From the IMG/VR virus record IMGVR_UViG_3300043957_000063, positions 1 through 39,012 of that record: DNA of 39,012 bases. One strand, 5' to 3'. The notes under the pieces are model-generated. The model did not search any database. It was given only the letters and a program-made list of their open reading frames with translations, and was not told where the DNA came from. Numbering within the stretch: position 1 is the first letter of the stretch; each line of letters starts with the position of its first letter. This DNA is from a virus. The position numbers and the translations under genes were made by a program. Below are positions 4,435 through 18,893 of the stretch, piece after piece.

Positions 4435-6165
4435 ATGGAATTAACTGATGAGTGCCAGACTGAGGCCATCTCCGAGCGCCCACAGGAACTCATCAGACGG
4501 TTATTCAAGCATCGGCGTGTTGACCCAGTTTCAAACTGCTGGTTCTGGACGGGCGGTCATACGGATAATGGGTATGGACACGTGTATTTAGACAAATCGA
4601 CGGTACTGGTTCACAGACTCAGTTATGAGATTTTCCGTGGAGCTATCCCGGAAGCCCATATCGTTGACCACCGCTGCTTTAACAGACTCTGTTTTAATCC
4701 AAACCATTTACGCTGCATTACGATCGCGGAAAACAACCAACATAGATTCGGCGCATCAAGCAACAATCGGTCATCCGGCGTCAGAAACGTTTACTGGTAT
4801 GGCTATAGGAAGAAATGGTTTGCGGCAATCCACCACAACGGCAAACAAATAAGAAGTGAATATTTCGACGATAAAGAACATGCATGCGAAGAGGCGGTAA
4901 GACTCAGAGCATTGTATTTCAAGGACCAAGGTGATAGCGATATGAAAGCCAAACACAGGAGGCCTCGCGGCACTGGAGCCGTATTTGTCGATTCACAAAA
5001 TCGGTACACATATACGCTCGAGCTACCCAATGACCCTGCGACGGGAAAACGCAGACGTAAAACATTCCGCAGCAAGGATCCGAATAAAGCCAAGGCCAAA
5101 TATCTGGAAGCTCGGAAGAAACTAATATCTACCGGAGTCCTTGCCTCGGATGTAACACCGAAACTGGCAGACTGGCTGGGACGCTGGCTCGAGGAGTTCA
5201 AGCGCCCCAACGTCAAGCCCCGCGTCTGGGAATCGTACCGCTCCGACTGCCGGAACATCACGAACAGCATCGGGGCCGTCCGCATCGGCGATCTCACAGC
5301 GGCGCATGTGCGCAAGCTGGAGAAGGACATCACCTCGACGCGCAGCAGCAAGACCGCGCTCAACGCGTATCGTCGTCTGAGCAACGCCCTCGATGACGCC
5401 GTTGGCGAGGGATTGATAGAGGTTAATCCATGTGCCCATTGCGACCCGCCCAGGGTCGAGGCGAACCCGACGGTGATACTTGATGCGGGCCAGCCCGTCA
5501 GGCTCATACAGGCCGCTTCCAGCGCCTCCGGCGAGGTGAAACGCAGGCGCGGCCAGAACAAGTGGCCGGACAGTCCCGAGGATGACGCGATGTGGAGCCT
5601 CATGTGGCGGCTCGCGTTCGAAACAGGCATGCGCCAGGGGGAGCGGTTCGCACTCACGCCTGCCGACCTTGTGGAGGTCGACGGCACTCCCGCGATCCAC
5701 GTGTGCCACGAGTTGCAGCGCTACGCGAAAGGCGCGGTCATACCCTCATGGCTCAAGGCCGAACCCATCACCAAGGGCATATGGATGGTGCCGCCCAAAT
5801 CGAAGAAGGGCGAACGCATCGTGCCAGTCAGCAAAACCCTCTGGGACGACCTCGCGGGGTGGGCGACCGATCATGAGCTGACCTCCAAGGATCTGATTTT
5901 CACCCGCAAGGGTCAGCCGCTGACCAATACGGTCGAACGACGCCGCTGGTACCGCGCATTGGAGAAGGCCGGACTACCGAGAGTGACGATACGCAGCGCA
6001 CGACACTATTTCGCCACCCAACTCGCCATAGCCGGAGCATCCGAAGACGCCCGCAAAAGCATCATGGGTCACGTCGACATCGGCACCACAGCAGGATATA
6101 CCCATTGGTCACCACAGGCTCTCGCGGAAATCACAGGAAAGACGGCGCTGAGCATCGAACAATAG
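4435..6165 (+). CDS. int: Tyrosine integrase with an in-frame N-terminal HNH_3 + AP2-like module (576-aa ORF; a conventional integrase could start at ATG 4942)
   Basis: HNH pattern: CWFWTGGHTDNGYGHV..LVHRLSYEIFRGAIP..VDHRCFNRLCFNPNHLRCIT..EN. AP2-like segment: SGVRNVYWYGYRKKWFAAIHHNGKQIRSEYFDDKEHACEEAV. Integrase motifs: RGTGAVF, TGMRQGERFAL, ARHYFATQL, IMGHVDIGTTAGYTH. No stop codon separates the modules. Confidence 0.85.
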   Translation: MELTDECQTEAISERPQELIRRLFKHRRVDPVSNCWFWTGGHTDNGYGHVYLDKSTVLVHRLSYEIFRGAIPEAHIVDHRCFNRLCFNPNHLRCITIAENNQHRFGASSNNRSSGVRNVYWYGYRKKWFAAIHHNGKQIRSEYFDDKEHACEEAVRLRALYFKDQGDSDMKAKHRRPRGTGAVFVDSQNRYTYTLELPNDPATGKRRRKTFRSKDPNKAKAKYLEARKKLISTGVLASDVTPKLADWLGRWLEEFKRPNVKPRVWESYRSDCRNITNSIGAVRIGDLTAAHVRKLEKDITSTRSSKTALNAYRRLSNALDDAVGEGLIEVNPCAHCDPPRVEANPTVILDAGQPVRLIQAASSASGEVKRRRGQNKWPDSPEDDAMWSLMWRLAFETGMRQGERFALTPADLVEVDGTPAIHVCHELQRYAKGAVIPSWLKAEPITKGIWMVPPKSKKGERIVPVSKTLWDDLAGWATDHELTSKDLIFTRKGQPLTNTVERRRWYRALEKAGLPRVTIRSARHYFATQLAIAGASEDARKSIMGHVDIGTTAGYTHWSPQALAEITGKTALSIEQ

Positions 6166-6430
6166 GAATGCCGAGAGACTCTCAACGCATCACTCAACTT
6201 TACGAAATAAAATCGATGATAATTTCATCAAACGAAACCTGCGTATTTGATTTAACAATTACTGGTCAATTACAGAAAAATTAAATTCATATAATCGGAT
6301 ATAAGTGATACGCTTTCTGTACAACAGAAAAGTGCATGTTTGATTCAGAGCCAGCGGTACACGTCTATCGTCTGGTTTTTACTTTTCAAACATTGCTTTA
6401 GCTGTTGAATAAAGGAAAGGGGCGGCAGAC

Positions 6431-6607
6431 ATGGCGTTGAGATCTTTAAGCGAAAGCTACGTAATAAATCGCGAGCCGTTAAGTCAGGAAGAGCGCAACG
6501 AATCTGCTCAGAAATTGCAAAGTTTCATGGCAGGATTCACTTCCCGTAGATTGGAAGGAAATTCGGAACTTCAGCATGAGGTTGGAATAGGCTTCAAGAA
6601 AAACTAA
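6431..6607 (+). CDS. Small ORF (58 aa), candidate antitoxin or partner of the downstream GNAT-like gene
   Basis: Below the length cut-off of the ORF track. A strong RBS AAAGGAAAGGGG at 6411-6422 precedes ATG 6431. The TAA stop at 6605-6607 lies 3 nt before ATG 6611, and the downstream gene has no RBS of its own. Translation: MALRSLSESYVINREPLSQEERNESAQKLQSFMAGFTSRRLEGNSELQHEVGIGFKKN. Confidence 0.5.
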   Translation: MALRSLSESYVINREPLSQEERNESAQKLQSFMAGFTSRRLEGNSELQHEVGIGFKKN

Positions 6608-6610
6608 CAA

Positions 6611-7231
6611 ATGGCTCTTTCATACTCATTGGTCGGAGTTAGTGAACTAGATTCACTCTCCGACCAAAAAATTGTCCAAAACCTGAAATCGCAAATGCGT
6701 GATTTTGAATGTCTAGATACCCGTACCGTAAAACGGTTTATCACCACGGAAAATGTCTATATTGCTGAGGATCATGGCGAATCTCGTACATATCTAGCTA
6801 TAAACGAAGACGACAATTCGATGATTGGTTTCTTTACTCTTGGATTAACAAGTGTCAAATGGGAAAAGATCACTTGTAGTGAAGGCTGGTCGGCCCTATC
6901 AAAGAAGAAACAGGCTAAGTATTCCAAGGGTGTACGCCAATCAACAGACGGATATGTGGGAGTATACACAATAGGAGAACTGGCGAGAAGCAGTCGGTTT
7001 ACACATGAAGATTTTCCTGGGACCGTATTGCTCAGAGAGGCAATCTCGCAAGTTATGCGGGCAAGAGAGATATCGGGAGGAAGATTTCTTCTTGTTGATT
7101 CACTTCAACATCTTTACGATGCTCTTTACAGCAAGGCTGGTTTCATCAGAATTGGGGATCTCGAGGCTCCTGACGAGGATGACGAGGCCCAGTATTGTGT
7201 GAGCATATTGACTCTGGAAAATCTACTCTAG
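6611..7231 (+). CDS. Divergent GNAT-fold protein resembling AtaT/TacT/KacT-type acetyltransferase toxins
   Basis: The motif order matches my memory of that family: DFEC..., SRTYLAINEDDNSMIGFFTL, an ALSKKKQAKY insertion, VYTIGELARSSRF, GGRFLLVDSL...LYSKAGFIRIG. The usual Q/RxxGxG acetyl-CoA loop is replaced by THEDFPG. The gene is very A+T-rich. Confidence 0.55.
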   Translation: MALSYSLVGVSELDSLSDQKIVQNLKSQMRDFECLDTRTVKRFITTENVYIAEDHGESRTYLAINEDDNSMIGFFTLGLTSVKWEKITCSEGWSALSKKKQAKYSKGVRQSTDGYVGVYTIGELARSSRFTHEDFPGTVLLREAISQVMRAREISGGRFLLVDSLQHLYDALYSKAGFIRIGDLEAPDEDDEAQYCVSILTLENLL

Positions 7232-7268
7232 AAGTTCACGTACAGGTACTACCATTTGATCTTTTTAT

Positions 7269-7296
7269 GCCCGGCCTTGTGCCGGGCTTTTCTTTT
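7269..7296 (+). terminator. Rho-independent terminator
   Basis: Stem gcccggc / gccgggc with loop cttgt, followed by ttttctttt. Confidence 0.8.
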
Positions 7297-7333
7297 ACCT
7301 ATGAGGAAGCCCCGCAGAAGCGAGACCAAAAAG

Positions 7334-7561
7334 CTAGACAATCATTTCCTCAACGGCTTCGAGCACTTCCCTTTTTAGCTGGTCTTCCTTATTTTTTTGA
7401 TCAATAACAGTCCAGCAGCCAAACGCGATCACAGCAATTATGGCTATGGCACCGATTATTCGTGCCGTGGTCTTCCTTTTTTGTTCGCGGTCCTTTTTCT
7501 GTTGCTCAAACCATTCTCTTTGGAGTTCCTCGATGCTGGGTTTCTTTTCGTTATTGCTCAT
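7334..7561 (-). CDS. Small single-pass membrane protein (75 aa), same strand as the repressor
   Basis: GGGGGAAAG RBS upstream. The N-terminus is charged, the TM helix is IIGAIAIIAVIAFGCWTVI, and the C-terminus is acidic. Confidence 0.6.
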   Translation of the reverse strand: MSNNEKKPSIEELQREWFEQQKKDREQKRKTTARIIGAIAIIAVIAFGCWTVIDQKNKEDQLKREVLEAVEEMIV

Positions 7562-7647
7562 ACTTTCCCCCGATTTCGATTCTTAGGAAAACTATAGCGT
7601 TTCCCGACAACGGTTTTTGTCGCATTCGTGCGTATCATGTTGCTTAC

Positions 7648-7687
7648 GTTCGAACAAATTGTGAAAGTGTTCGAACAAGATGTGAAG
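7648..7687. repeat. Tandem 20-bp direct repeat GTTCGAACAAATTGTGAAAG / GTTCGAACAAGATGTGAAGA
   Basis: Read directly. Each unit contains the palindrome TTCGAA. The repeat lies between the repressor terminator and the 7561 gene. Confidence 0.8.
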
Positions 7688-7700
7688 AATAAGTAATTAG

Positions 7701-7744
7701 ATAAAGTAAAGGGGCTTGCCATCCAGCAAAGAAACGAAAGCCCC
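7701..7744 (-). terminator. Terminator-like hairpin after the repressor gene
   Basis: On the minus strand: stem ggggctt...aagcccc (7 bp, long loop) followed by tttactttat. Confidence 0.45.
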
Positions 7745-7784
7745 GAATCGAGTACACCAATTGAGGTGCAACATGTAGTTTAAC

Positions 7785-8045
7785 TCAGTTTCGGTGTATT
7801 CCTCGAACTTCATCTAAGAGTCCGAAAACGTTAGTGTAACCAAGAATGCGAGCCAGTTTATCTAGATCCTCGGTCGTCCATGCATCTAAACCGCGAATCC
7901 GAACAGATATATACGACTGAGACCTGTGCAACTCTCTCGAGACCTGTGTTTGTGAAACGCTTTTCCGCTCCAAGAGCTGAGCAATGGTGTCGGCAATAAG
8001 TTTTGCCGTTGTGCCAATGCTTGGCAGTTCGTTGTTTCTTACCAT
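7785..8045 (-). CDS. CI-like repressor, XRE-family HTH (86 aa)
   Basis: HTH segment SVSQTQVSRELHRSQSYISVRIRG. AAAGGAG RBS. The gene is divergent from a cro-like gene across an operator-containing region. Confidence 0.75.
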   Translation of the reverse strand: MVRNNELPSIGTTAKLIADTIAQLLERKSVSQTQVSRELHRSQSYISVRIRGLDAWTTEDLDKLARILGYTNVFGLLDEVRGIHRN

Positions 8046-8066
8046 ATAAGACTCCTTTCATGTCTC

Positions 8067-8094
8067 ACATTATCGCATATGCGTAGTTTGTCAA
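8067..8094 (-). promoter_or_regulatory. Putative repressor-gene promoter: -35 TTGACA (8094-8089), 16-nt spacer, -10 TAATGT (8072-8067)
   Basis: Read on the reverse complement. The spacer is exactly the 14-bp operator repeat O1. Confidence 0.55.
8073..8086. promoter_or_regulatory. Operator O1: TCGCATATGCGTAG containing the perfect palindrome CGCATATGCG
   Basis: An exact 14-bp copy recurs at 8146-8159. Confidence 0.7.
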
Positions 8095-8145
8095 CTCTAC
8101 CGAGATATATAAGGGAGTTTACAAGAAAAACGCGACACGCCATGT

Positions 8146-8159
8146 TCGCATATGCGTAG
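8146..8159. promoter_or_regulatory. Operator O2: TCGCATATGCGTAG
   Basis: Identical to O1. It overlaps the -35 of the rightward promoter. Confidence 0.7.
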
Positions 8160-8184
8160 ACAAATATCAGTAATCATGTATTAT
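8157..8184 (+). promoter_or_regulatory. Putative early rightward promoter: -35 TAGACA (8157-8162), 16-nt spacer, -10 TATTAT (8179-8184)
   Basis: Hexamers read directly. The promoter is positioned upstream of the cro-like gene. Confidence 0.5.
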
Positions 8185-8195
8185 GTAACTATCAG

Positions 8196-8211
8196 CTTCG
8201 CAAATGCGAAG
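8196..8211. promoter_or_regulatory. Operator O3: CTTCGCAAATGCGAAG (near-perfect 16-bp palindrome with the same CGCA-WA-TGCG core)
   Basis: Read directly. It lies between the rightward -10 and the ATG at 8227. Confidence 0.6.
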
Positions 8212-8226
8212 AAGAAAGGAAAGAAA

Positions 8227-8472
8227 ATGACTGATTTTCAGCATCTTTTCTCAAATGCGATAAAAGCACAGATGGGCCGGCTCAGCATCTCGAAAGTTGA
8301 CCTATCCGAAAAGCTTGGTTGGGGAAAGAACACATCACGTTTATCTGCGAGGTTAAACAACAAGACCAATTGGAACACAGCAGATTTTGAAGTTGTTTCA
8401 AAGGCTCTTGACCTTCCAGATGCATGGGCTCTCATTAATTTAGCTCAGCAGGAAGCGGCTCTGGTGGCATGA
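8227..8472 (+). CDS. Cro-like HTH regulator (81 aa)
   Basis: Start chosen at MTDFQ (ATG 8227), preceded by AAGAAAGGAAAG. HTH segment ISKVDLSEKLGWGKNTSRLSARLN. The longer ORF from 8152 would run through the operators. Confidence 0.7.
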   Translation: MTDFQHLFSNAIKAQMGRLSISKVDLSEKLGWGKNTSRLSARLNNKTNWNTADFEVVSKALDLPDAWALINLAQQEAALVA

Positions 8473-18576: not shown

Positions 18577-18647
18577 TCCTCTGTAGCTCAACGGATAGAG
18601 CACGTAATGTTAGTGCGCGCGAGCGGGTTCGACTCCCGCCAGAGGAA
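18577..18647 (+). tRNA. tRNA-Asn(GUU)-like gene with a non-canonical shortened anticodon stem; no encoded CCA
   Basis: Acceptor stem tcctctg/cagagga (7 bp). D-arm gctc-aacggata-gagc. T-arm gcggg-ttcgact-cccgc. Anticodon loop atgttag (GTT). Only 4 clean anticodon-stem pairs (cgta/tgcg, including one G-T), and 71 nt in total. Confidence 0.6.
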
Positions 18648-18893
18648 CAGCGCCACTGTCAATGTCAGCAGTGGCTTGCGTGGAGACAGCTACCACGTAA
18701 TCGCAGAATGACACCGCGGGCAAGCTGAAATGCGGTGCTCCCCGAGAGCGCCCAAGCCTCTGCCCGCACACTCTTGCCTGGTGGTCTTACAACCTTTCAC
18801 CACCAGGCACCACACTTGCTCTGCCATGCCACATCCCAGCACGCCACACGGTGGCAGACATGAGCAGAGCACATTCAACCTAGGAGCTGACAT

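Follow-up and report, generated by a model that had tools for sequence, protein, structure and literature searches.

Introduction

GNAT toxins, which block translation, form an important class and have been linked to persistence and plasmid maintenance. To our knowledge, they have been known almost only from Proteobacteria, and only in company with DUF1778 or DUF4065 antitoxins. Here we describe a two-gene cassette from a Bifidobacterium phage, in which a gene for a protein of 58 amino acids precedes one for a GNAT-fold protein of 206 amino acids. The cassette lies in a stretch of 39,012 nucleotides (positions 1 to 39,012 of IMG/VR virus record IMGVR_UViG_3300043957_000063; hereafter the window), which is a complete temperate siphovirus-type phage genome of Bifidobacterium crudilactis. 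The source species is given by the 206-residue protein, which is 100% identical to a B. crudilactis protein that NCBI labels 'hypothetical'.

AtaT serves as our reference among the described toxins. Its surface for the tRNA acceptor stem comprises H34, R37 and R40 of helix α1, the segment S76-K82 of helix α3, which contacts the acceptor-stem backbone, and R95, while the substitution G108D blocks binding of acetyl-CoA (PMC7595197). On the antitoxin side, DUF1778 positions 53-76 correspond to the βB-αC part of the hook with which KacA wraps around its toxin (PMC6698736). Pairs of DUF4065 (Panacea) with GNAT proteins provide a precedent for antitoxin replacement beside a GNAT toxin (PMC9177977). 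Bikmetov et al. (2022; PMC9177977) further described GNAT-toxin homologues outside a 'true TA clade' (TA, toxin-antitoxin), which lie in TA-like bicistrons with short open reading frames (ORFs) lacking DNA-binding domains. The function of these homologues was left open, with the speculation that they have unidentified antitoxins or evolved other functions, and GNAT-toxin homologues were found to be almost absent from Firmicutes (PMC9177977). The family described below most probably belongs among these outside-clade homologues.

An earlier note on this DNA, written from the sequence alone, had singled out the region between the integrase and repressor genes as an accessory island, with a small ORF translationally coupled to a divergent AtaT/TacT-like GNAT protein. 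On the evidence presented here, we lean towards the view that the cassette is a toxin-antitoxin-like or phage-exclusion module with a new kind of neutraliser, in which the GNAT protein would be the toxin. Our literature searches did not find this module characterised.

Results

Sequence and structural neighbours of the GNAT protein

The GNAT gene occupies positions 6611-7231 on the plus strand, as do all cassette features below. Searched as a single sequence, its product found nothing in Pfam, NCBIfam or PADLOC, phmmer gave no match in the PDB and blastn none among phages; a scan of viral contigs with the Bifidobacterium alignment likewise recovered no relative. The protein does match phrog_1758 ('acetyltransferase') from end to end (E = 2e-17), and an exhaustive HMMER search with a six-sequence profile collected 458 relatives, 116 of which were aligned. 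Just seven of the 116 reach any GNAT model in Pfam at E ≤ 0.01, so that the family is effectively unannotated. The 116-sequence profile, run against 177,635 PDB sequences, returned 16 matches, all of them type II GNAT toxins (GmvT, AtaT, TacT1-3, AtaT2, KacT and ItaT; best E = 2.6e-14), and no other GNAT. By hhalign, the family matched a KacT-like toxin from a plasmid DUF1778-GNAT locus with 97.5% probability (E = 7e-12).

The AlphaFold (AF2) model built on the 116-sequence alignment has a pLDDT of 95.8 and a pTM of 0.90 (an attempt with six sequences gave a pLDDT of 48 and was not used), and shows the mixed α/β fold of GNATs, with its elements in the order β1-α1-α2-β2-4-α3-β5-α4-β6-7. Foldseek found 504 PDB matches for this model at E ≤ 1e-3, the best 50 of which are all GNATs, and ranks 1-24 are taken by chains of ItaT, AtaT2, AtaT, TacT3, GmvT, KacT and TacT, with target-normalised TM-scores of 0.7-0.78. 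The BFVD viral fold library yielded just generic GNATs at lower scores. The idea of a GNAT toxin relative had been offered for refutation by a lack of any GNAT-fold match or structural similarity; what we found is the opposite, with toxins heading the profile, Foldseek and hhalign results. Judged by sequence and predicted fold, the 206-residue protein is nearer to AtaT, TacT, KacT, ItaT and GmvT than to other GNATs.

Within this neighbourhood, the family stands apart. Its hidden Markov model scored members and held-out relatives (from Streptococcus, Clostridium, a high-GC actinobacterium and other Bifidobacteriaceae) at 129-199 bits and five canonical DUF1778-linked toxins at 47-58 bits, and in a neighbour-joining tree the five canonical toxins form a separate monophyletic group. 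These comparisons place it as a sister family outside the canonical DUF1778-linked 'true TA clade'.

The same searches bear on a rival reading, which we regard as rather unlikely: the GNAT protein could be a non-toxic accessory acetyltransferase that serves lysogenic conversion, acetylating a protein of the host or the phage, some small molecule or a precursor of the cell envelope, to the benefit of the lysogen or the phage, with the small protein as its specificity, adaptor or regulatory subunit. The neighbours of the protein in sequence and structure are, however, toxins in particular: in the Foldseek ranking, PaiA at rank 25 is the first GNAT that is not a toxin, and the PDB profile matches contain no such GNAT at all.

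Catalytic, cofactor-binding and tRNA-binding residues

AtaT residues were mapped from HMMER alignments, and conservation was counted by column in the 116-sequence alignment. The note had recognised a motif order like that of AtaT, TacT and KacT, and the alignments with AtaT agree: F32-x-C34 of the window protein corresponds to F20-x-C22, SRTY to R45-A-Y, GFFTLG to GYYTLC, TIGELA to TLGRLA, GGRFLLVDS to GIHGLFVEA and LYSKAGF to FYKSLGF. The catalytic tyrosine (AtaT Y144, KacT Y145) is matched by Y173 of the window protein, the predicted catalytic residue, which is invariant (116/116), and the acetyl-CoA-loop glycine G108 of AtaT is G137 (108/116). The N-terminal motif residues F20, C22 and F30 are represented by F32, C34 and F43, each kept in at least 110 of the 116 sequences, and R45 by R59, with arginine or lysine in 98/116.

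The acetyl-CoA loop between β4 and α3 does not follow the canonical Q/R-x-x-G-x-G/A pattern: Q103-G-Q-G-W-G108 of AtaT is H132-E-D-F-P-G137 in the window protein, with only the last glycine conserved, and the family consensus reads x-[ED]-[DE]-[LI]-[PS]-G. The loop had previously been called degenerate. Its departure from Q/RxxGxG is real, but degenerate it is not: since G137 is so widely retained, as is Y173, and since the loop is modelled at a pLDDT of ~96-97, it represents a conserved family variant rather than a decayed or disordered remnant. On these grounds of conservation and modelling, the protein is very probably an active acetyl-CoA-dependent acetyltransferase. An insertion of about 30 residues had also been proposed. 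The protein is indeed 31 residues longer than AtaT, but only about 15 of these are inserted, between β3 and β4 (GFFTLG and TIGELA are 41 residues apart, as against 26 in AtaT), and the rest are terminal extensions.

The tRNA-binding surface gives a mixed picture. The α3 segment S76-K82 of AtaT is matched by S97-K98-K99-K100-Q-A-K103, with lysine or arginine in 85/116 sequences at the K79 column and in 77/116 at the K81 column; retention of this basic helix, together with the toxin-specific N-terminal FxC...F motif, argues against an accessory enzyme. The remainder of the surface favours one. H34, R37 and R40 on α1 are replaced by E47, Y50 and D54 in the window protein, with loss of their basic character, and their equivalents are also lost in its Bifidobacterium relatives; R95, essential in AtaT, is E123 in the window and glutamine or glutamate in every family member. 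Moreover, the window protein has an isoelectric point (pI) of 4.98 and the Bifidobacterium clade as a whole is acidic (5.0-5.9), whereas Firmicutes relatives are basic (8.2-9.0). Because of this acidity, the loss of the three α1 residues and the replacement of R95, a tRNA substrate is uncertain; for the Bifidobacterium clade, aminoacyl-tRNA is plausible but uncertain.

The 58-residue partner

The partner ORF extends over 6431-6607, with its TAA stop codon at 6605-6607. Relatives of its product form nine clusters in a database of 5.8 billion proteins, all from Bifidobacteriaceae or metagenomes, and 14 aligned homologues share the N-terminus MALRSL, Y10, S25 and the motif FM[AS]GF-S. The protein has no match in Pfam, PHROG, PADLOC, NCBIfam or the PDB. 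Six partner members searched against Pfam gave none at E ≤ 10 except a spurious DUF3042 hit below that model's cut-off, and DUF4065 was not matched; profile searches of the PDB reached a best E of 0.57-0.7, with unrelated proteins; and hhalign against an alignment of five DUF1778 antitoxins returned a probability of 0.05%. No RHH, HTH, AbrB or Phd signal was seen. The negative Pfam and hhalign results fit the earlier impression that the partner is unlike a DUF1778/RHH antitoxin. That no antitoxin-type DNA-binding domain was found in it is at the same time a point in favour of an accessory-enzyme subunit.

The partners in Firmicutes belong to PHROG 6339 (labelled as of unknown function), against which the Bifidobacterium partner does not score. 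The two partner families have only their extreme N-terminus in common, 13-15 residues of the form M-[AP]-[LTS]-x-[ST]-[LF]-x-x-x-[YFI]-x-[VLFI], and profile-profile comparison gives a weak 0.8-3.9% probability. When Firmicutes partners were compared with DUF1778, the top hhalign match fell repeatedly on positions 53-76, the hook region of KacA, with a probability of only 3.7-7.9%. As a hypothesis from these alignments, the partner may be a 'headless DUF1778' descendant.

The N-terminal motif also invites a different explanation, in which the small protein is a substrate or pseudo-substrate whose N-terminal Ala2, exposed by removal of the methionine, enters the active site and acts as an acetylation switch or a substrate-mimicking inhibitor. 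The extreme N-terminus is the sole segment that actinobacterial and Firmicutes partners share, and enzymes of the AtaT type acetylate α-amines (PMC7595197). The likeness is statistically weak, however, as the profile-profile values above indicate, and alanine at position 2 is common in bacterial proteins; we consider this explanation improbable.

Translation signals, leader and terminator

Upstream of the partner ORF stands the Shine-Dalgarno (SD) sequence AAAGGAAAGGGG, whose anti-SD pairing energy of -10.2 kcal/mol corresponds to about the 1st percentile of the background (-10.3); within the leader, the SD AAAGGAAAGG is placed at ~6414-6423. The ATG of the GNAT gene follows the partner stop after 3 nt, and its own SD reaches only -0.8 kcal/mol, against a background median of -3.0. 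This asymmetry is general. In each of the 14 loci analysed, which span two phyla, the partner gene has a strong SD (-8.1 to -14.6 kcal/mol; background 5th percentile -7.8) and the GNAT gene a poor one (+0.6 to -6.4 kcal/mol), with junctions between the two genes ranging from -4 to +29 nt. The values confirm what had been proposed for the window, namely a small ORF with a strong ribosome-binding site that ends 3 nt before a GNAT gene without one, and the consistent absence of an SD before the GNAT gene supports the proposed translational coupling. With a strong SD on the partner and none on the GNAT gene, coupled or re-initiated translation is thus supported, with the partner made in excess.

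An intrinsic terminator at 7269-7296 closes the two-gene operon. Its hairpin, at 7269-7287, has a stem of 7 bp, all of them G:C, and a loop of 5 nt; the T-rich tail TTTTCTTTT comes next. The terminator is as clean as first described. The operon thus has the generic layout of a type II TA system: two small co-directional genes with a tight or overlapping junction, the first of them better translated, and a single terminator. The SD asymmetry and the strict two-gene mobile cassette, carried by phages, satellites and plasmids, are usual marks of TA systems and speak against a mere accessory enzyme.

The cassette begins with a conserved leader (6300-6430), which can be aligned with four metagenomic loci (L001-L004) despite differing upstream DNA, so that the conserved unit starts at about 6300. 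Folded as RNA, positions 6296-6436 reach -41.3 kcal/mol (z = -3.0), and RNAalifold indicates that the structure is kept, with two compensatory pairs among only five close sequences. The structure is a long imperfect hairpin (inverted repeat I1), formed by 6322-6343 pairing with 6386-6407, which encloses a terminator-like stem and U-run (UUUUU) at ~6346-6380, just upstream of the SD. The hairpin might attenuate transcription, or serve as a regulatory RNA element that takes the place of the missing DNA-binding antitoxin head; an Rfam search of 6100-8300 gave nothing significant, and no obvious operator palindrome was found in the leader. The sequence TGATACGCT at 6305-6313 might be an extended -10 element. 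This promoter assignment is ours by inference only. A scan with the sigma-70 consensus found promoter-like sites no more often than expected by chance (4 observed, 4.3 expected).

Finally, the gene order, with a small gene followed by one for a GNAT protein, equals that of topAI-yjhQ in Escherichia coli, which raises the question whether the roles are reversed, the small protein being the toxin and the GNAT protein the antitoxin, as in the TopAI(YjhX)/YjhQ pair. The high conservation of the small protein would suit such a scheme. Nevertheless, hhalign gave the family profile only 2.3% against YjhQ, over 15 residues, compared with the 97.5% for the KacT-type toxin, and the partner 0.4% against TopAI; no match to the Pfam model YjhX_toxin was found, and the small protein is the more strongly translated of the two, the wrong way round for a toxin. 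We consider reversed roles highly improbable and have rejected the TopAI/YjhQ reading on homology.

Pairing and selection

The two genes occur together wherever we looked. Nine metagenomic contigs (L001-L009) encode homologues of the 206-residue protein at 43-87% identity, with a small ORF directly upstream in 9/9, and the pair was found in 29 of 29 inspected loci, with both reading frames intact in 28. A protein identical to the 58-residue product (P0157) is held in JGI, ENA and Logan and is missing from NCBI, which fits the earlier statement that the ORF is unannotated.

Ratios of nonsynonymous to synonymous substitution (dN/dS; Nei-Gojobori estimates) were low for both genes. Between the window and L002, at a dS of ~0.8 (0.79 for the small ORF), the ratio is 0.04 for the small ORF and 0.09 for the GNAT gene; the corresponding values are 0.05 and 0.25 for L008 against L009, and 0.13 and 0.08 for L016 against L020. 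With dN/dS at 0.04-0.25, both genes are under purifying selection. One could have suspected a decaying remnant or a chance pair of ORFs without current function, the genes lying in a low-GC island of foreign origin and the GNAT protein being merely 'hypothetical' to NCBI. Purifying selection on both genes at a dS of up to 0.8 effectively refutes this, and the intact frames and the conservation of SD, leader and terminator point the same way; we give the remnant next to no credence.

In one Streptococcus-type contig (L037 3001-3516; IMG/VR UViG_3300007284_000094), the GNAT protein is cut to 171 residues, relatives having 192-194, next to an intact 56-residue partner. This may be an inactivated-toxin allele.

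Distribution and mobility

The placement of the cassette between integrase and repressor, observed in the first reading of the window, recurs in sister prophages, and the cassette lies beside int in other bifidoprophages. In L002, it comes after a tRNA and the remnant of an integrase with homology to the window integrase, and before an ImmA/HTH repressor pair; in L001, an ImmA/HTH module and an antirepressor lie downstream of it. The chromosomes of three Bifidobacteriaceae, B. mellis, Bombiscardovia coagulans and B. panos, carry the pair in a non-prophage setting, adjoining tRNA, Nudix, Fic or ImmA-like genes. In Bombiscardovia coagulans, genes for ImmA/IrrE-type metallopeptidases (HELGHY motif) stand on both sides of the cassette (L011 2499-3083 and 5421-5972), and in B. 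panos the cassette adjoins a Fic-family gene and a tRNA (L012 1511-2752); both loci look like small defence or TA islands.

In Firmicutes, Streptococcus phage Javan166 encodes a 56-residue partner whose gene overlaps the GNAT start by 4 nt, between lysin and paratox, and satellite phage Javan250 a 54-residue partner with an overlap of 1 nt. On Clostridium botulinum plasmid pCBG, the partner has 56 residues when counted from the conserved MAT start (it is annotated with 86), and a gap of 29 nt separates the genes. Eight further viral contigs have partners of 54-56 residues from the conserved MAT start, with 1- or 4-nt overlaps. The Firmicutes partner cluster P0172 is found on 736 contigs, including S. 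pyogenes JRS4, and the pair is very common in streptococcal prophages (P0172; L030-L033), which sits oddly with the published near-absence of GNAT-toxin homologues from Firmicutes (PMC9177977). Altogether, the pair shows the patchy spread of an autonomous cassette: besides prophages, its carriers include a satellite phage, a plasmid and islands adjoining tRNAs, and the cassette boundary lies at the conserved leader.

Genome context in the window

The window contains genes for an endolysin, integrase, HTH repressor, cro-like protein, antirepressor, RecT, terminase, portal, major head and tape-measure proteins. The cassette is flanked by the integrase gene (4435-6165) on one side and by the repressor gene (7785-8045, minus strand) on the other. 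An A+T-rich island between the two had been noted. A dip in G+C content (GC) does lie there, but it does not end with the cassette at 7330: from 6001 to 8400, GC is 0.40-0.45, as against roughly 0.55-0.62 across most of the window, and the stretch 7600-8400, where the repressor and cro genes lie with the intergenic region between them, has 0.40-0.44. In its composition, the whole lysogeny-control segment, and not the cassette alone, is therefore foreign to the remainder of the phage.

Between cassette and repressor lies a 75-residue ORF (7334-7561, minus strand) with one predicted hydrophobic helix and weak matches to PHROG 'membrane protein' morons. It was considered as a third component of the cassette and rejected, for sister prophages and loci have other genes at this position.

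The integrase is a 576-residue fusion, its tyrosine-recombinase core coming after an N-terminal HNH_3 endonuclease-like domain (residues 58-101, E = 1e-13) and a weak AP2-like domain for DNA binding. Directly upstream of int are the endolysin gene (818-2089; phrog_291) and a phrog_2384 gene; with these genes directly 5' of int, the window looks like a phage genome in circular permutation or a lysis-attP-int junction. The attP site is expected between ~3770 and 4430, an interval in which ARAGORN detects no complete tRNA. A tRNA-Asn (GTT) gene lies at 18577-18648, between the replication/recombination and the packaging genes, and may be relevant if host or phage uses tRNA-targeting toxins.

Discussion

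Our preference for a TA-like module rests on the toxin homology and fold of the GNAT protein, the integrity of its active site, the SD asymmetry, the invariant pairing, the purifying selection on both genes and the mobile, low-GC nature of the cassette. In such a module, a self-contained and horizontally mobile operon, made up of leader, 58-residue gene, 206-residue gene and terminator, would sit as a moron between the genes for integrase and repressor. Its GNAT protein would be an active acetyl-CoA-dependent acetyltransferase that shares common descent with the tRNA-acetylating type II toxins and belongs to a sister family in which DUF1778 is never the partner. The 58-residue protein would be produced in excess from its strong SD, with translation of the GNAT gene depending on coupling or re-initiation. 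We infer that the small protein physically binds the GNAT protein and neutralises its presumed toxicity, as a short antitoxin without a DNA-binding domain. Should the small protein be depleted, be it by loss of the element, by host shut-off through an infecting phage or by proteolysis, the freed GNAT protein would acetylate an essential target and arrest growth; this target would most likely be the α-amino group of aminoacyl-tRNAs, as in AtaT and TacT. The biological role of the pair might then be prophage addiction, abortive infection or exclusion, or more than one of these.

Several observations weigh against this interpretation. The partner evolves more slowly than the GNAT protein in close comparisons (dN 0.029 versus 0.069), which is unusual for antitoxins and would be expected of an obligate subunit of an accessory enzyme. 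No recognisable antitoxin domain emerged from the Pfam, PDB profile and hhalign searches of the partner, and neither a palindromic operator nor a DNA-binding domain was found that could explain autoregulation. On the side of the enzyme, the acetyl-CoA loop is non-canonical, the α1 residues H34, R37 and R40 have been lost in the Bifidobacterium proteins, R95 is replaced family-wide and the Bifidobacterium clade is acidic. Finally, a search of PADLOC-DB v2 matched no family to either protein at E ≤ 1, and no defence-system model.

Beyond the window, one may ask whether the cassette is the founding example of a widespread, phage-borne family of Gram-positive GNAT toxins, distributed over prophages, satellites and plasmids of Actinobacteria and Firmicutes, with a minimal neutraliser that lacks the DNA-binding head and with abortive infection or exclusion as its function. 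We put this forward as a tentative possibility. The neutraliser could in this case be a descendant of the DUF1778 β-α-α hook, now 'headless', or a peptide of unrelated origin whose conserved N-terminal strand plugs the active site, and the acidic Bifidobacterium branch may have shifted to a target other than tRNA. If such a family existed as proposed, a prophage defence or exclusion system would be missing from current defence catalogues, and GNAT toxins would no longer count as nearly absent from Firmicutes.

Whatever its function, the cassette marks out a sister family that escapes Pfam, NCBIfam and PADLOC and is always tied to a tiny partner without known domain; its carriers in Bifidobacterium, Streptococcus and Clostridium botulinum are temperate phages, satellites of phages and plasmids. 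If the GNAT protein is toxic and can be neutralised, the pair represents a new antitoxin type and a candidate defence or addiction system of prophages in gut commensals and pathogens, as well as a natural experiment on how the substrate surface and the cofactor loop of a GNAT toxin can change. If it is not toxic, it offers an example of a toxin scaffold redirected to another acetylation task.

Compared with the described systems, the cassette stands closest to AtaRT, TacAT1-3, KacAT, ItaRT and GmvAT, with which it shares the GNAT fold, the F-x-C...F motif, the catalytic tyrosine, the loop glycine and the basic α3 helix. As in these type II GNAT-DUF1778(RHH) systems, the small gene lies upstream in a tightly coupled bicistron on mobile elements, but their antitoxins have ~90 residues, while the partner here has 58 and no RHH/DUF1778 signal. 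The enzyme differs from AtaT in being ~30 residues longer, in its H-E-D-F-P-G loop in place of Q-G-Q-G-W-G, in glutamine or glutamate instead of R95 and, in the Bifidobacterium clade, in a pI of ~5 and the lack of equivalents of H34, R37 and R40. In TopAI (YjhX)-YjhQ, too, one operon encodes a small protein and, downstream of it, a member of the GNAT family, yet homology is undetectable by hhalign for either partner, and the roles are probably opposite. The DUF4065 (Panacea) pairs have a much larger partner with a recognisable domain, and their GNATs fall inside the true TA clade.

The same architecture, and the N-terminal motif of the partner, are shared with the PHROG 1758 and PHROG 6339 pairs of Streptococcus and Clostridium phages, in which partners of 54-56 residues overlap the GNAT start by 1 or 4 nt; these Firmicutes GNATs differ from the Bifidobacterium ones in being basic, and the likeness of the partners is confined to the first 13-15 residues. 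For their outside-clade homologues, Bikmetov et al. (2022; PMC9177977) neither define a family nor describe the partners, and report no experiment. The family described here proved to be common among prophages and satellites of Streptococcus and on plasmids of Clostridium.

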